Shown: positions 58,169 through 62,946 of the stretch, piece by piece | How the letters are laid out: each line of letters opens with the position of its first letter | Position numbering within the stretch: position 1 is the first letter of the stretch | NCBI GenBank assembly: GCA_018062765.1 | Contig: JAGORR010000001.1 | Coordinates: 442,485-506,484, forward strand | Direction: 5' to 3' | Origin: Minisyncoccota bacterium | GTDB lineage: Bacteria > Patescibacteriota > Minisyncoccia > Phycocordibacterales > Phycocordibacteraceae | Length of the DNA stretch: 64,000 nt | Made by a program: the position numbers and the translations under genes | The notes under the pieces: generated by a model | The model's input: the letters and a program-made list of their open reading frames with translations, nothing else | What the model was told of the DNA's origin: nothing | The model's database searches: none

Positions 58169-58184
58169 ACCTCACGGGGAATCG
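58169..58184 (+). repeat. 16-bp direct repeat of the tRNA-Glu 3' end (putative attL of the islet)
   Basis: ACCTCACGGGGAATCG is identical to 62877-62892. It sits in a locally repeat-rich junction, where CTCGTCGTCACTCA also occurs twice. Confidence 0.5.
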
Positions 58185-58407
58185 CCTACAACTCTCGCCT
58201 CGTCGTCACTCAGCTCGGTCGCAGGCCCGCCTCACGGTCTCGATGGATACTGCCCCCAGCACTATCCATTAACTCGACTTGCTCCGCCTTTCGATTCAAT
58301 ACGTGGTCACGGATTACTAAGCGTATTGCTCCAAGTATTCGCAATCCGCTAAGTATCCTCGACCCCCGCTCGCCGTCTTCCTAGGAAGGAAGACATGGCT
58401 GCGCGCT

Positions 58408-58455
58408 CACACACAGCACAAAACCCGGCGCAGGCCGGGTTTTGTGCTGTGTGTG
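58408..58455. other. long perfect hairpin (~22-bp stem) at the outer edge of IR1-L
   Basis: ctcacacacagcacaaaacccggc-gca-gccgggttttgtgctgtgtgtgag. Confidence 0.6.
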
Positions 58456-58746
58456 AGGATGTTCTAACCCATGCGCGAACTCACTTCGCACGCGCGTAGC
58501 GCGTGGTGGCTTGAGATTATTTCGTACGCTCCGATTCCGTGCCAATGCGAACCGCCGCCGCACGCCGCCGAGTACGGCGGCAACCCCGAAAGAAAAACGC
58601 CCTTTCCTTTTTCAAAACGCATTCCCCCCGCCAAACAAAAATGCATGGAGCGGTTTTCTTTCGGGGTTCTGCCCTCCAAGTATTCGGGCAGTGCGGCGGC
58701 GGAAATGCCATGCGGTTCGATTCAGAAAAAGGCGGTTTACAAGCCC
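58452..58746. repeat. inverted repeat IR1, left copy (295 bp, perfect reverse complement of 60886-61180)
   Basis: The ORF track shows identical pseudo-ORFs on opposite strands. Boundaries were mapped base by base. Confidence 0.9.
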
Positions 58747-61180: not shown

Positions 61181-61305
61181 AAAAGAAACTTCGACAGGAT
61201 TCAGTTCGGAACGCAAACCCGCCCAAAGCGGGTTTGCGTTCATTTTGCCGCGGAGTACCGCGGCGTATTCGGATGGTGGGGGGATTCTGAAATGCATGGA
61301 TTTGC
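61176..61305. repeat. inverted repeat IR2, left copy (130 bp), contiguous with IR1-R
   Basis: Reverse complement of 62747-62877 except for a G6 versus C7 homopolymer length difference. Confidence 0.9.
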
Positions 61306-61350
61306 ACCTGTTTCGTATCCACCATAATCATTTCTTTGGTATGCTTAGAA

Positions 61351-62877
61351 ATGATTATGGCGAAACCAAAATATTTTCTCTACGCACGCAAATCAACTGA
61401 ACCTGACGACAAGCAGGTAATGAGTATTCCTGCGCAACTTGTCGAATTGCGAGAATTTGCGGCGAGAGAAAATCTTGAAATCGTCCGCGAGTTTCAAGAG
61501 TCGAAAAGCGCAAAGACGCCGGGACGTGAAGTGTTCGGCGATATGATGATGCGTCTTGAGCGCGGCGAGGCAAGCGGCATAATTGCGTGGCATCCAGATC
61601 GCCTCGCACGAAATAGCATTGACGGCGGGCGCATCATATACGCCGTAGACACTTCCAAAATTGTGTCTTTGCGCTTTCCGACCTTTTGGTTTGAACCCAC
61701 CCCGCAGGGGCTCTTTATGTTGCAGGTGGCGTTCGGCCAAAGTAAATATTATTCCGACAATCTCGCGGAAAATACCCGCCGTGGTATGCGTCAGAAACTG
61801 CGTCGAGGCGAGTGGCTGACCAAAGCTCCCTTTGGCTACACCAACAATCCTAGAACGCGTAATATTGAGCCGGACGCGGTGAAATCGCGCATCATCGTCA
61901 AAGCGTTCGAAGAATACGCCAAAGGGAGCCACACCCTCATTTCACTAGCGCAGTTTCTGGCCGACCACAATGTAGCGACTAAGGCCGGAACGCCACTTGG
62001 CAAAGCTTCCGTAAAGCGAATTTTGACGAACCGCGCATACCTTGGCTTCACCAAACACGCTGACGAGTATTTCCCCGGAAGCTTTGCGCCAATTCTCTCT
62101 CCGCGCCAGTTTGAAGCCGTTCAAAAAATACTTGCGAGCAGAGAACGCAAGCGCAAAATACGCGGCACGCACGATTTTCCCTTCGCCAATCTTTTTTGTT
62201 GCGCGAATTGTGGCGGCATGTTCACGGCACAATGGGCGACCGGGAAATCGGGTGGCCGTTACCGCTACTATCGTTGTACGAAAAAGAAAGGAAATTGTGG
62301 CGCGAAATATTTGCGCGAAGACCTGCTCGCAGGTCAAATCAAGGAACGGCTTCAAACTATCTCGCTTCCCGACAGGTATACCGGCTGGATGCTGAACAAG
62401 GTGGACGAATGGGAACGCGAGGAAACAACTGCGTCGGGAAGCGAGATACAAAATCTTTCTTCAGAGATCAAAGCAAGCGAGGAGCGCATGGACAAACTCG
62501 TTTCAACTTATCTGGATGGCGATATACCGAAAGAGAGTTATCTAAAGCGCAAAGACGCTCTCATGCGCTCTCTCGCCGCTTTGCAAGAGAAAAAGAAAGA
62601 TTTTGAGCGCGGACGAAAGAATTGGGTCGAACCCCTGCGGGAGTGGGTTTTGGATACGAAACAGGCCATGGTTTTGAGTTCGTCCGACGATTTGCACGAA
62701 ATCTCCGATTTCGTTCGCAAAGTCGGAACGAACCCCAATATTGAAAGCAAATCCATGCATTTCAGAATCCCCCCCACCATCCGAATACGCCGCGGTACTC
62801 CGCGGCAAAATGAACGCAAACCCGCTTTGGGCGGGTTTGCGTTCCGAACTGAATCCTGTCGAAGTTTCTTTTTGTGA
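61351..62877 (+). CDS. large serine recombinase (resolvase/invertase catalytic domain + recombinase domain + zinc ribbon)
   Basis: N-terminal YARKSTEPDDKQ with the catalytic Ser. Recombinase domain. Zinc ribbon CCANCGG...YYRCTKKKGNCG. Coiled-coil. The last ~130 nt of the ORF lie inside IR2-R. Confidence 0.85.
   Translation: MIMAKPKYFLYARKSTEPDDKQVMSIPAQLVELREFAARENLEIVREFQESKSAKTPGREVFGDMMMRLERGEASGIIAWHPDRLARNSIDGGRIIYAVDTSKIVSLRFPTFWFEPTPQGLFMLQVAFGQSKYYSDNLAENTRRGMRQKLRRGEWLTKAPFGYTNNPRTRNIEPDAVKSRIIVKAFEEYAKGSHTLISLAQFLADHNVATKAGTPLGKASVKRILTNRAYLGFTKHADEYFPGSFAPILSPRQFEAVQKILASRERKRKIRGTHDFPFANLFCCANCGGMFTAQWATGKSGGRYRYYRCTKKKGNCGAKYLREDLLAGQIKERLQTISLPDRYTGWMLNKVDEWEREETTASGSEIQNLSSEIKASEERMDKLVSTYLDGDIPKESYLKRKDALMRSLAALQEKKKDFERGRKNWVEPLREWVLDTKQAMVLSSSDDLHEISDFVRKVGTNPNIESKSMHFRIPPTIRIRRGTPRQNERKPALGGFAFRTESCRSFFL
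62747..62877. repeat. inverted repeat IR2, right copy (131 bp), overlapping the recombinase 3' end and ending at the tRNA-Glu boundary
   Basis: Base-by-base comparison with 61176-61305. Confidence 0.9.
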
Positions 62878-62946
62878 CCTCACGGGGAATCGAACCCCGA
62901 TTTGATCCGTGAGAGGGATCTGTCCTAACCGTTAGACGATGAGGCC
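62875..62946 (-). tRNA. tRNA-Glu (anticodon CTC)
   Basis: Hand-folded cloverleaf on the minus strand. Acceptor GGCCTCA/TGAGGTC. Anticodon arm GATCC-CTCTCAC-GGATC. T-arm CGGGG-TTCGATT-CCCCG. Discriminator A. Confidence 0.7.

Follow-up and report, generated by a model that had tools for sequence, protein, structure and literature searches.

How did a Patescibacteria genome come to have the gene for a large serine recombinase (LSR) right against the 3' end of tRNA-Glu, and where are the ends of the DNA that moved with it? The DNA analysed here, a stretch of 64,000 nucleotides that we call the window, was at first thought to carry a unit at 58169-62946 bounded by a 16-bp direct repeat. Comparison between genomes gives a shorter conserved mobile unit of 4.4 kb, which ends at 58452 instead and runs to 62877. 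We consider it probable that this unit is an integrative element which its own LSR mobilised, and that it is integrated at the 3' end of tRNA-Glu(CTC) in a Patescibacteria (Paceibacteria-type) genome. Insertion at that position, as the preliminary description proposed, is borne out by relatives that lack the LSR and by a related locus, L081, in which a unit of the same architecture with a 90% identical LSR lies in a different genomic context. The GC content is 0.46-0.54 within the element and 0.55-0.58 in its flanks.

The interval carries only the LSR gene and one cargo gene, and none of the ORFs scanned has a Phage_integrase domain. The LSR reading frame (61336-62877, +) matches Resolvase (PF00239, residues 14-160, E 2e-22), Recombinase (PF07508, 8e-12) and Zn_ribbon_recom (PF13408, 1e-9), which upholds its original assignment. 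The nucleophile Ser15 lies in YARKS, the DRLAR motif lies within HPDRLARN, and a Cys4 zinc ribbon with the cluster CCxxC...C...C is followed by about 100 residues with heptad-like charged positions that suggest a coiled coil. Relatives in the PDB are SPbeta YokA/SprA (9dxh, E 3e-12, residues 49-415 aligned) and A118 Int (4kis); the best NCBIfam and PDB matches, to SprA/YokA, A118 Int, CcrB and XisF, all fall below family cut-offs. A promoter-like site (TTTGCA-16-CATAAT, 61301-61328) was found in the promoter scan. This enzyme is very probably the integrase of the element. It has 508 residues and is not the small enzyme with a C-terminal HTH that typifies serine invertases. A search for the LSR among the viral contigs of IMG/VR gave no relatives, and on this ground we put a phage origin aside.

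The cargo gene encodes, as first described, a membrane protein with Cyt-b5 and beta-propeller parts (58737-60839, -; the frame reaches 60839 if read from a TTG). The product has about six N-terminal hydrophobic helices, a Cyt-b5 domain (PF00173) and a cytochrome-D1/YVTN beta-propeller (PF02239, 2e-70), and gives only sub-threshold propeller matches against NCBIfam; a promoter-like site (TCCACA-18-TATAAT) is located at 60880-60851. The same cargo gene is carried by L081. Elsewhere the cargo differs among elements and includes restriction-modification systems, reverse transcriptase, toxin-like genes and methyltransferases, a variety typical of mobile elements.

The tRNA gene is still full length after the insertion, matching all of Rfam model RF00005 (model positions 1-71 of 71; 59.3 bits at 62875-62946). 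The recombinase gene had been thought to end 2 nt from it, but the TGA stop codon (62875-62877) instead overlaps the last nucleotides of the tRNA. When 57900-63100 was scanned against Rfam at E<=1 the tRNA was the only match, so the repeats described below hold no known RNA family.

Table 1. Positions of features in the window. Empty cells, no strand given.
Feature	Position	Strand	Basis
Distal 16-mer copy of the tRNA-Glu 3' part, by the MFS gene	58169..58184	+	Window search, comparison
267-bp mini-insert between the distal 16-mer and the LSR element	58185..58451		Comparison of relatives
Perfect hairpin with 24-bp stem, base including the core	58406..58457		Repeat search; fold -48.2 kcal/mol, z = -9.6
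S3, attL-like junction, core TGTGA	58452..58456	+	Exact-extension comparison, L081 homology
IR-A left arm (arm Y)	58452..58746	+	Repeat search, blastn, folding, promoter scan
Cargo gene, membrane protein, 694 aa from ATG	58737..60821	-	Pfam, translation
IR-A right arm (Y', 295 nt)	60886..61180	+	Repeat search; blastn 100% over 295 nt
S2, internal junction, core TCACA (TGTGA on minus strand)	61176..61180	-	Repeat and extension comparison
IR-B left arm (X', inverted copy of X)	61176..61305	+	Repeat search, folding
LSR gene, 508 aa	61351..62877	+	Pfam, translation, NCBI gene call in L162
IR-B right arm (arm X, 131 nt)	62747..62877	+	Repeat search, 100% complementary
S1, attR-like junction, core TGTGA	62873..62877	+	Exact-extension comparison, sequence
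tRNA-Glu (anticodon CTC), probable integration target	62874..62946	-	ARAGORN; Rfam RF00005

The most striking feature of the locus is two pairs of long, near-perfect inverted repeats, one around each of two modules, with arms of 295 nt at the cargo gene (IR-A) and 130 nt at the LSR gene (IR-B). We compared the three junctions S1, S2 and S3 by exact extension. The pentamer TGTGA is the only sequence in the window that they have in common, both repeat pairs stop exactly there, and it forms the two ends of the unit, at S3 and S1. At S1, arm X lies to the left and the tRNA arm to the right; the core is the reverse complement of tRNA nucleotides 71-74 plus one trailer base, and the LSR stop codon falls within it. 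At S3, host-side sequence lies to the left and arm Y to the right. Since homology with L081 begins inside IR-A, with none further left, S3 is probably the true left end of the conserved element. S2 is the exact meeting point of IR-A and IR-B, and on the minus strand it reads X-TGTGA-Y, which has the form of an intact attP and the opposite orientation to S1 and S3. This arrangement is also present in L081 and 14 further loci. The core is 3-8 bp long in 12 other loci, in each matching the 3' terminus of the tRNA; in three further loci IR-A and IR-B do not abut. As is usual for serine-integrase sites, the ends thus have a short core and lack a long duplication, in the window as in the relatives.

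The preliminary description treated the 16-bp repeat as an att duplication, with the element reaching the distal copy, such that the LSR would have moved 58185-62876 (4.7 kb), with the 16 bp as att core, a crossover in or next to it, and an attP carrying a copy of the tRNA 3' part. The repeat itself is as reported: ACCTCACGGGGAATCG occurs exactly twice in the 64-kb window (58169-58184 and 62877-62892), where no further copy with up to two mismatches was found, and none of 100 shuffles gave two matches. It spans the tRNA from the T-loop to nucleotide 71 with no extension on either side. This repeat is exact, non-random and tRNA-derived, and its geometry suits an insertion at the 3' end of a tRNA gene: the displaced copy is beside the native neighbour, an MFS gene (56793-58088) that starts about 80 nt away. 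Moreover, both L081 and L089 have a distal tRNA-3' copy, each joined to a terminator hairpin, and the sequence beside the distal copy, which we call V, is similar in the window and L081. The junction between 16-mer and V is conserved between these two loci and could also be a shared outer element end.

Several observations nonetheless argue that the LSR element stops short of this repeat. Homology between the window and L081 ends at IR-A, 268 bp and 1.5 kb short of the respective distal repeats. The distal copy occurs in only three of 28 loci (it is absent in the other 25), always outside the element and at varying distances from its end (268 bp, 1.5 kb and 3.6 kb). The classical signature of a tRNA island, a tRNA-3' direct repeat at both ends of the unit, is thus not seen; the unit ends 268 bp inside the repeat and its junctions share only the 3-8 bp of the core. 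Furthermore, repeated tRNA 3' fragments surround mini-inserts of 130-270 bp in L025 and L170, which have no LSR, and a V-like sequence is also found upstream of the MFS gene in L170. Finally, the repeat/V junction lies in the T-loop, which fits an event of the tyrosine-recombinase type and not the 2-bp crossover of a serine recombinase. We regard this delimitation as largely refuted and quite unlikely.

In place of it, we read the 16-mer as a piece of the tRNA 3' end that was probably displaced by an older and separate insertion of 267 bp, a mini-insert (58185-58451) that, judged by comparison of relatives, is probably not part of the LSR element. Its organisation, a hairpin followed by ..GAATCGAAAG..GTCGAG.. 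and a tRNA-3' copy, is common to the window, L025, L081 and L170. Relatives without the LSR also have copies of tRNA 3' fragments in the interval from tRNA-Glu to the MFS gene, and the window has a second, shorter tRNA remnant, GGGGAATCG at 58132-58140, within a 45-bp tandem duplication. The mini-insert would have separated tRNA-Glu from the MFS gene before the LSR element arrived. When all loci were searched for V it was found only in the window and L081, apart from a minus-strand match with three mismatches near window position 8925 that we regard as chance.

These observations suggest a scheme for the integration of the 4.4-kb unit. The LSR would recombine the attP of the element (X-TGTGA-Y) with a chromosomal attB composed of the final nucleotides of tRNA-Glu(CTC) and the beginning of a terminator hairpin, with the crossover inside the 5-bp core TGTGA. 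The products would be an attL, hairpin-TGTGA-Y (58452), and an attR, X-TGTGA-tRNA (62877); we infer both catalysis by the LSR at the core and a circular intermediate. The hairpin at 58406-58457 was presumably the terminator of the tRNA before the element inserted. Analogous tRNA-Glu and hairpin layouts are present in L163, L025 and L171, and the left flank of S3 in other elements is often a hairpin, which we read as the displaced terminator. The tRNA would remain intact, with arm X supplying a new trailer and a terminator-like hairpin: arm X contains, at 62812-62844, a 14-bp stem (-34.1 kcal/mol, z = -4.4) followed by AUUUUG on the tRNA strand. The counterpart of this hairpin in the left arm of IR-B (61209-61241) is oriented to halt transcription coming into the LSR module from the cargo side.

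Recognition of the tRNA side by the enzyme would most likely involve the core and the T-arm. The distance from the core to the motif CGAACC is 18 nt in the tRNA arm and 24 nt in arm Y, an offset of a kind described between the half-sites of serine-integrase attB and attP; this half-site reading leans on CGAACC, which is a motif common to all tRNAs. The L081 element adjoins a tRNA fragment of 20 nt that is 132 bp away from the real tRNA, suggesting that about 20 bp of tRNA arm suffices. On the element side, arm Y begins with the core followed by GGATGTTCTAACCCATGCGCGAAC, a conserved P'-type arm, and the motif GAAGTTTC, which is conserved across about 55 loci, lies in arm X 5 nt before the core. 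A proposed dyad symmetry between the arms X and Y (GAAACTTC versus GAAATACT) was dropped because its offset conflicts with a crossover in the shared core. No candidate gene for a recombination directionality factor was found in the window element, and some relatives have small XRE-type HTH genes. Neither the contigs of relatives nor IMG/VR gave a circular contig, and the element could be immobile.

Near relatives lack the element. The arrangement that the preliminary description proposed to look for, tRNA-Glu beside the MFS gene without an LSR, is indeed present in L005 (40 nt apart), L016, L025 and L171. In L163, which is 97.6% identical on the tRNA side, the tRNA is followed directly by the terminator hairpin with no element, and the contig ends 52 nt past the tRNA. 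Identity stops about 18 nt upstream of the tRNA and not at the core, and the two tRNAs differ at about 13 positions, a pattern which indicates that the strains differ by more than a clean insertion. An empty site with both flanks was not found among the contigs of relatives. Every contig with the exact MFS protein belongs to the same strain, and the 24-bp hairpin forms the end of two of these contigs. The best MFS homologues short of identity (82% and 77%) are on short contigs with other arrangements. Likewise, the left flanks of 15 elements have no uninterrupted counterpart among the loci fetched.

The double-inverted-repeat layout recurs in about 30 further independent Patescibacteria contigs. 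Where relatives have enough downstream sequence, a convergent tRNA gene abuts arm X in 56 of 64, representing 18 isoacceptors. The related serine-recombinase proteins found by protein search number at least 5,954, and the best 120 of them are all at least 66% identical to the window LSR. Literature searches gave no description of this LSR-element family or of a double-inverted-repeat architecture, and the window element apparently belongs to a large, undescribed family that targets many tRNA genes.

This spread bears on the possibility of an assembly artefact, in the repeats or in the whole arrangement, and on that of an LSR gene which the host has domesticated and which belongs to no mobile element. 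Metagenome assemblies do often break or mis-join at repeats, and many of the related contigs end there. However, more than 30 contigs have the same architecture; they come from many projects and assemblers, and some are several hundred kilobases long. Moreover, two independent MAGs of the same strain match the window across both repeats. A domesticated gene is at odds with its presence by 18 tRNA isoacceptors with varying cargo and its absence from near relatives. We consider this explanation to be close to refuted and extremely improbable.

The repeats also raise the question of what the internal site does. The element is bipartite, with a cargo module in Y/Y' and an LSR module in X'/X joined at S2, so an excised circle would hold two inverted copies of a repeat of about 430 bp, X-core-Y. 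The arms are 100% and 99.3% identical within elements and 57% and 67% identical between elements (medians), and presumably identity is kept by gene conversion or flip-flop recombination. The serine-integrase cycle as given in textbooks does not, to our knowledge, include an intact attP within an integrated element. We considered whether single-stranded DNA might fold there so as to rebuild attP, whether the site might capture a second attB, and whether it might serve cointegration of sister chromosomes, and found no workable advantage on paper.

An alternative is that the LSR mainly flips the LSR and cargo modules, for phase variation of the cargo or self-regulation, and that integration at tRNA genes is ancient or rare. 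S1/S2 and S2/S3 are indeed inverted site pairs, with inverted repeats around each module and the shared core at their outer ends. Because the 3' end of the LSR gene lies inside the repeat (arm X encodes its final 43 or so codons), the gene survives inversion. The LSR module appears in the opposite orientation in a minority of contigs (about five of about 60), as tRNA-X'-LSR in L117 and as LSR-X-core-Y in L103, L122, L138 and L144. Against the 56 convergent cases this is a strong bias, and the flipped cases are on short contigs that may be mis-joined across the 130-bp repeat. Flipping would make no obvious switch, given that the promoter-like sites of the cargo and LSR genes lie in their own unique DNA, and the diverse tRNA targets, cargo and genomic contexts require frequent transposition. 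Pairing of attR or attL with attP is, as far as we know, not a normal serine-integrase reaction. We therefore find it unlikely that inversion is the main activity of the enzyme, and retain integration at the tRNA as the preferred reading.

The element shares with the serine integrases of integrative elements and temperate phages (phiC31, Bxb1, A118/LI Int, SPbeta SprA, SCCmec CcrAB and Anabaena XisF) the same enzyme of resolvase, recombinase and zinc ribbon/coiled-coil parts, the position of the gene at the element edge by the att site, a very short core and no long duplication. It differs in targeting the extreme 3' end of many tRNA genes, in its size (4-8 kb in the family) without phage or conjugation genes or a visible directionality factor, and in having a second, intact, inverted attP-like site, with attP lying within a homogenised repeat. 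Tyrosine-integrase islands at tRNA genes (Williams 2002; Islander/TIGER) likewise integrate at the tRNA 3' end, with the integrase gene adjacent and the tRNA functional, and successive insertions pile up at such sites, which the 16-mer and mini-insert of the window fit. The LSR element departs from them in its enzyme family, in a crossover that would fall in a 3-8-bp core at the discriminator and last acceptor bases and not in the anticodon or T-loop, and in making no direct repeat of 15-25 bp.

The use of a tRNA 3' end by an LSR is unusual, as the preliminary description stated (Mageeney et al.). Only 4.9% of serine-integrase islands in one large survey map to t(m)RNA genes, and proof was asked for; TIGER gave 14 S-Int islands at t(m)RNA genes (PMC7192596). 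Among the tycheposons of Prochlorococcus, 27 of 937 elements encode a large serine instead of a tyrosine recombinase (Hackl et al., bioRxiv 10.1101/2020.12.28.424599). These two sets are computational precedents for tRNA-linked LSR elements, and tycheposons and 'cryptic elements' are also small, cargo-carrying integrative elements of streamlined genomes, tycheposons being at tRNA genes. They mostly use tyrosine recombinases, often with replication genes, and no double-inverted-repeat or internal-attP layout is reported for them, whereas the family described here is uniformly LSR-based and in Patescibacteria. The tycheposon hallmarks of a deep-branching tyrosine recombinase and replication or packaging genes are absent from the window element and the surveyed cargo.

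The repeat geometry of the putative circle resembles that of the yeast 2-micron plasmid, and in both the repeat copies are kept identical. In 2-micron two long inverted repeats part two unique segments; the FLP target (FRT) is within the repeat, and one of the segments carries the gene for FLP, which belongs to the tyrosine recombinases. The plasmid replicates. The C-segment of phage P1 has 0.6-kb inverted repeats and a small serine invertase, Cin. The window element differs from both in that it integrates and has no replication gene. In the transposons Tn4451 (TnpX) and Tn5397 (TndX) an LSR both excises and inserts a small element through a circle with no known directionality factor, as the window LSR would. 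Their targets are relaxed and centred on a GA dinucleotide, with no tRNA specificity and no long internal inverted repeats, and the family described here differs from them on both counts.

Serine integrases are not known for targeting tRNA genes, and here an abundant clade targets the final tRNA nucleotides systematically. Close enzymes with different tRNA targets form a natural series from which the DNA recognition of serine integrases could be learned, and which may also be of use in engineering. In Patescibacteria, a group with poorly known mobile elements, the family may be a main carrier of accessory and defence genes. A bolder proposal, which we put forward tentatively as a little less than an even prospect, is that bipartite LSR elements are a very large undescribed class pervasive in Patescibacteria, that their enzymes read a generic tRNA feature (the 3'-terminal core plus the T-arm), enabling the family to use at least 18 isoacceptors, and that the internal inverted attP is functional. 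That site might serve to flip modules, to exchange cargo cassettes between elements, to allow mobility with no directionality factor, or to insulate the recombinase transcriptionally. If true, the architecture would be new among site-specific mobile DNA, and such elements would be a main route by which defence and metabolic genes flow in these reduced genomes. The retention of a second, inverted, intact attP within identical long repeats is a mechanistic puzzle that is directly testable.

We also looked at the repeats themselves for function. ORFs starting in IR-A in 16 elements are of low complexity, vary in frame and are not conserved as protein, and IR-A was accordingly treated as non-coding. 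Arm Y has an outward-facing promoter-like site (58545-58516, -), a conserved hairpin CACGCG..CGCGTG and a long dyad (58582-58612 / 58638-58668). RNAalifold of 11 Y arms gave two conserved dyads, one with compensatory changes, but with a covariation term of about zero, and so does not argue for a structured RNA; any action of the dyads may be at the level of DNA.

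Domain, repeat, ARAGORN and Rfam searches bear out the components named in the preliminary description, namely a pair of 16-mers, a tRNA-Glu, a gene for a large serine recombinase (LSR) and a single cargo gene. The 16-mer ACCTCACGGGGAATCG matches the part of the tRNA that runs from its T-loop to nucleotide 71; it is present twice in the 64-kb window, with no flanking identity on either side and no further copies in the window when two mismatches are allowed, and two matches were seen in 0 of 100 shuffled sequences. By sequence criteria the 508-aa LSR is a large serine recombinase, with the nucleophile motif YARKS, a DRLAR motif and a coiled-coil-like stretch after a Cys cluster; its nearest solved structures are SPbeta SprA/YokA and the A118 integrase, and no named NCBIfam equivalog was reached. 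The LSR TGA stop (62875–62877) overlaps the last nucleotides of the tRNA, and the sole other gene of the interval encodes a membrane protein that combines a Cyt-b5 domain with a propeller of the cytochrome-D1 type.

The interval also contains two pairs of long inverted repeats that the preliminary description missed, one (IR-A) bracketing the cargo gene and the other (IR-B) the LSR gene. Their inner ends meet at 61176–61180, the last ~43 LSR codons fall within IR-B, and the precise outer end of IR-B is the tRNA 3' end. GC content is 0.46–0.54 within the element that they delimit (58452–62877) versus 0.55–0.58 outside it. When the repeats are extended base by base, the three junctions S1, S2 and S3, at which repeat arms X and Y (inverted copies X' and Y') meet each other or the host, have the pentamer TGTGA alone in common.

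Coordinates of the features of the tRNA-Glu locus and its relatives (window positions unless a comparison contig is named)
Feature	Position	Strand	Description	Location or orientation
tRNA-Glu(CTC)	62874-62946	minus	ARAGORN; Rfam 59.3 bits, full model	
LSR ORF	61336-62877	+	Resolvase, Recombinase, Zn_ribbon_recom domains	
16-mer copies	58169-58184; 62877-62892			
IR-A	58452-58746; 60886-61180		295 nt, 100% identity	around cargo gene
IR-B	61176-61305; 62747-62877		about 130 nt, 99-100% identity	around LSR gene
S3	58452		host hairpin-TGTGA-Y	
S2	61176		X-TGTGA-Y	inverted
S1	62873		X-TGTGA-tRNA	
IR-A promoter-like pair	58516-58545; 61087-61116	-; +	TTGGCA-18-AATAAT, 10/12 consensus matches	outward, toward core
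Mini-inserts	window 58185-58451; L025 9727-9896; L081 11540-11671; L170 ~310-490			
XRE/Cro-type HTH genes	L085 7294-7752; L100 2876-3298; L106 5200-5631			

S3, S2 and S1 are related to each other as attL, attP and attR would be if a recombinase crossed over within a few base pairs, and the implied chromosomal attB would be hairpin-TGTGA-tRNA. We consider it likely that this is an integrative element whose LSR recombines X-TGTGA-Y with the terminus of tRNA-Glu; its anatomy, its junction logic, the tRNA adjacency of the family, mobility between contexts and the homogenised repeats can all be read from the sequences compared here. The LSR would read the T-arm of the tRNA and catalyse crossover at the core, and the circular intermediate would carry two inverted ~430-bp copies of X-core-Y.

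Reading inward from the core, arm X specifies a hairpin (-34 kcal/mol, z = -4.4) followed by AUUUUG, which at S1 could terminate the tRNA transcript and, as X' at S2, could block transcription entering the LSR module. The unique DNA 5' of each gene holds promoter-like sites, identified as consensus matches only. Going only by hairpin and promoter geometry, the most plausible role for the internal attP-like site would be to insulate the LSR from outside transcription and let it regulate itself, with occasional flipping of a module. We found no credible protein encoded in IR-A and no Rfam family matching it; IR-A has two conserved dyads, one with compensatory changes, and neither gave convincing RNA covariation. 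The left promoter-like site of IR-A would read over attL toward the neighbouring MFS transporter gene, and the internal one toward the X' hairpin.

A protein search for relatives gave at least 5,954 serine recombinases, the best 120 of which are each at least 66% identical to the window LSR and, where the source is named, come almost entirely from Patescibacteria. We fetched 80 metagenome loci encoding relatives 62–88% identical to the LSR; together with L081, the contig that carries the closest relative, these include 64 loci with at least 215 nt past the LSR gene, and in 56 of them a convergent tRNA gene abuts the element arm with its 3' end. The target tRNAs represent 18 isoacceptors among Glu, Ser, Arg, Ala, Ile, Leu, Met, Lys and Val, and on the element side of the junction a conserved GAAGTTTC is separated from the core by 5 nt. 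The double-repeat layout is present in every locus with enough sequence, IR-B being 115–140 nt long and IR-A 210–330 nt, around 2–6 kb of cargo. Bases common to S1, S2 and S3 span just 3–8 bp in 12 further loci, and in all 12 they are the terminal nucleotides of the tRNA (GCGG for Ser, GTGC for Arg, GTGG for Ala/Val). A hairpin is frequent at the left flank of S3, as would be expected if the tRNA's own terminator had been displaced to the far end of the element.

The best-conserved non-coding sequence of the family is core-TGAAATACTAACCTTTGCGCGAAC, the start of arm Y, which lies just 5' of nearly every LSR gene. By-eye comparison of elements with Ala, Ser and Arg targets places CGAACC at a distance from the core of 24 nt in Y and 18 nt in the tRNA arm, where it constitutes the T-loop. 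In serine-integrase attP half-sites the zinc-ribbon motif lies ~5 bp further out than in attB half-sites, and the 6-bp offset resembles this difference, which is suggestive rather than proof. The same arm with a GTGC core is found at Lys(CTT) and Arg(CCT, GCG, CCG) tRNAs, which fits recognition of the core plus a generic T-arm.

The closest LSR relative (P0001, 90% identical) is encoded on L081 in an element with the same cargo gene, double-repeat layout and TGTGA core, and with repeats of 249 nt (100% identity) and 130 nt (98%). Its neighbours are wholly unlike those in the window, with Mur ligase and PBP genes on one side and deaminase and PDH genes on the other, and homology between the two loci runs from within IR-A to the tRNA-side core and no further. 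The L081 element adjoins a 20-nt repeat of the 3' end of tRNA-Glu, which lies 132 bp downstream of the tRNA itself, and a tRNA arm of ~20 bp plus the core therefore suffices as a target. At L081 11520–11691 the LSR ORF runs on through the 20-nt fragment to give 544 aa; the C-terminal tail of the LSR thus depends on the insertion site.

The preliminary description proposed a search for an empty site, and the outcome supports insertion: in four more distant relatives, L005 (40 nt apart), L016, L025 and L171, tRNA-Glu immediately precedes the MFS gene and a recombinase is absent. A contig closer to the window, L163 (ENA ERZ27275549, ...CCACTAAGCAGCGT), is 97.6% identical to 62871–64000; its tRNA-Glu(CTC) is followed at once by a terminator hairpin (stem start TCAC), the element is absent, and the contig ends 52 nt past the tRNA. 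Identity is lost ~18 nt upstream of the tRNA, and the two tRNAs differ at ~13 positions, mostly compensatory, so the difference between the strains exceeds a clean insertion. This suggests that the whole tRNA gene and adjacent DNA may have been replaced between them, perhaps by a route such as homologous recombination after DNA uptake. In a comparison of window 62874–62965 with L163 2040–2134, the acceptor and anticodon stems both show compensatory changes, and identity ends right after the promoter-like TTGGTATAAAA of the tRNA.

The preliminary description took 58169–62946 as an LSR islet bounded by the 16-mer. The distal copy lies 268 bp outside the conserved element, and a distal copy of the tRNA 3' end is present in just 3 of 28 relatives (268 bp, 1.5 kb and 3.6 kb past the element); a mobile unit with these bounds is improbable. 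Because tRNA-Glu natively adjoins the MFS gene, displacement of the tRNA 3' end is the best reading of the 16-mer, and also of a shorter tRNA box, GGGGAATCG, at 58132–58140. This box lies within a 45-bp imperfect tandem duplication (58126–58215; minus-strand unit GAGTGACGACGAG, 15 nt, CGATTCCCC, 7 nt), of which unit 1 holds the 16-mer and unit 2, which precedes the MFS start codon by ~42 nt, retains 9 nt of it.

The 267 bp that separate the 16-mer from the element have an organisation common to other mini-inserts: a hairpin, then ..GAATCGAA(A/G)..GTCGAG.., then a tRNA-3' copy. These are 130–270 bp long and directly follow tRNA-Glu; each opens with a terminator hairpin, the stem of which takes in the last bases of the tRNA, and an inverted T-arm-like box (GGGGAATCGAAGA..GTCGAG) precedes a 9–20-nt direct tRNA-3' copy at the end. 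None contains a recombinase gene, and the L025 and L170 loci lack one altogether. The mini-inserts may be islands that have decayed, a MITE-like element, or an MFS leader with a structure of its own. In L025 the order is tRNA-Glu, hairpin, ~170 nt, tRNA-3' repeat and MFS gene, which resembles the window locus as it would have been prior to LSR insertion. From this arrangement and the mini-inserts without recombinase we conclude that the 16-bp repeat is probably the trace of an earlier and distinct insertion at this tRNA, and that the LSR element inserted later at the tRNA terminal core. A T-loop junction is typical of tyrosine integrases. In L170 (1–320), an unrelated ORF with a coiled-coil-like C-terminus lies upstream of an MFS gene 82% identical to that of the window. 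Some 70 nt separate the end of this ORF from an 8-nt fragment of the tRNA-Glu end (AGGGTCAC) with its hairpin, and the whole probably marks where another element, integrated in the same tRNA, ends. The 60 nt directly left of the L089 element (4060–4120) are 92% identical to L026 4414–4473, which immediately precedes an MFS gene in a MAG with a Gammaproteobacteria label.

Median arm identity within elements is 100% for IR-A and 99.3% for IR-B, versus 57% and 67% between elements; for the window and L081, DNA of the LSR body is 90% identical and the arms 64% (IR-A) and 82% (IR-B). The arms therefore change fast yet stay identical within each element, from which we infer gene conversion or flip-flop recombination. 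In L117 a tRNA-Ser on the same strand lies directly 5' of X' and the LSR start, and L103, L122, L138 and L144 have X-core-Y 3' of the LSR; these could be flipped modules, circular forms, or assembler mis-joins over the 130-bp repeat. Flipped modules would agree with an LSR that is mainly an invertase, a reading that we find unlikely. In L107 (1–4883) the LSR module is flanked by Y arms of two different cargo modules, so that each end has an X-core-Y junction; identity between its X arms is just 94.7%, and it may be a recombinant of two elements or an assembly chimera. Contig ends at the repeats are common among related contigs, as expected for inverted repeats that exceed the k-mer. The window agrees with two independent same-strain MAGs over both repeats, and we give very little credence to an artefact or a domesticated gene.

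Cargo in 16 elements surveyed includes type III restriction-modification genes, a C5 methylase with LexA-like and caspase-like proteins, a reverse transcriptase, a DUF4411/PIN protein with an M78 peptidase and RNase H, an HNH nuclease, nucleotidyltransferases, methyltransferases and nucleotide-metabolism enzymes. Several elements, the window's not among them, have small XRE/Cro-type HTH genes just inside IR-A (real products probably ~70 aa), which are candidate regulators or directionality factors. No LSR relatives were found among IMG/VR viral contigs; the elements are small accessory-gene islets, not prophages.

Precedents for tRNA targeting by serine integrases are computational only: TIGER placed 14 of 297 serine-integrase islands at t(m)RNA genes, for which its authors ask for proof (PMC7192596), and an LSR is encoded in 27 of 937 tycheposon-type elements (bioRxiv 10.1101/2020.12.28.424599). 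In the full-text literature searched, which covers part of the journals, we found neither an LSR family of Patescibacteria located at tRNA genes nor the double-repeat/internal-attP layout described, and an earlier account of either may exist.

The DHA3-type MFS gene (56793–58088) is next to tRNA-Glu in several Patescibacteria and is 55–60% identical to genes of Caulobacterales, Sphingomonadales, Actinomycetota and others (L001–L080); it has thus been widely exchanged between phyla. To its left, ~50000–56400 (gene list from L166–L169) holds genes for a Y-family polymerase (IMS/IMS_C) and a Peptidase_S24 (LexA/UmuD-like) protein together with T2SSE, T2SSF and prepilin-like genes, which look like an SOS-type mutagenesis cassette beside type IV pilus/competence genes.
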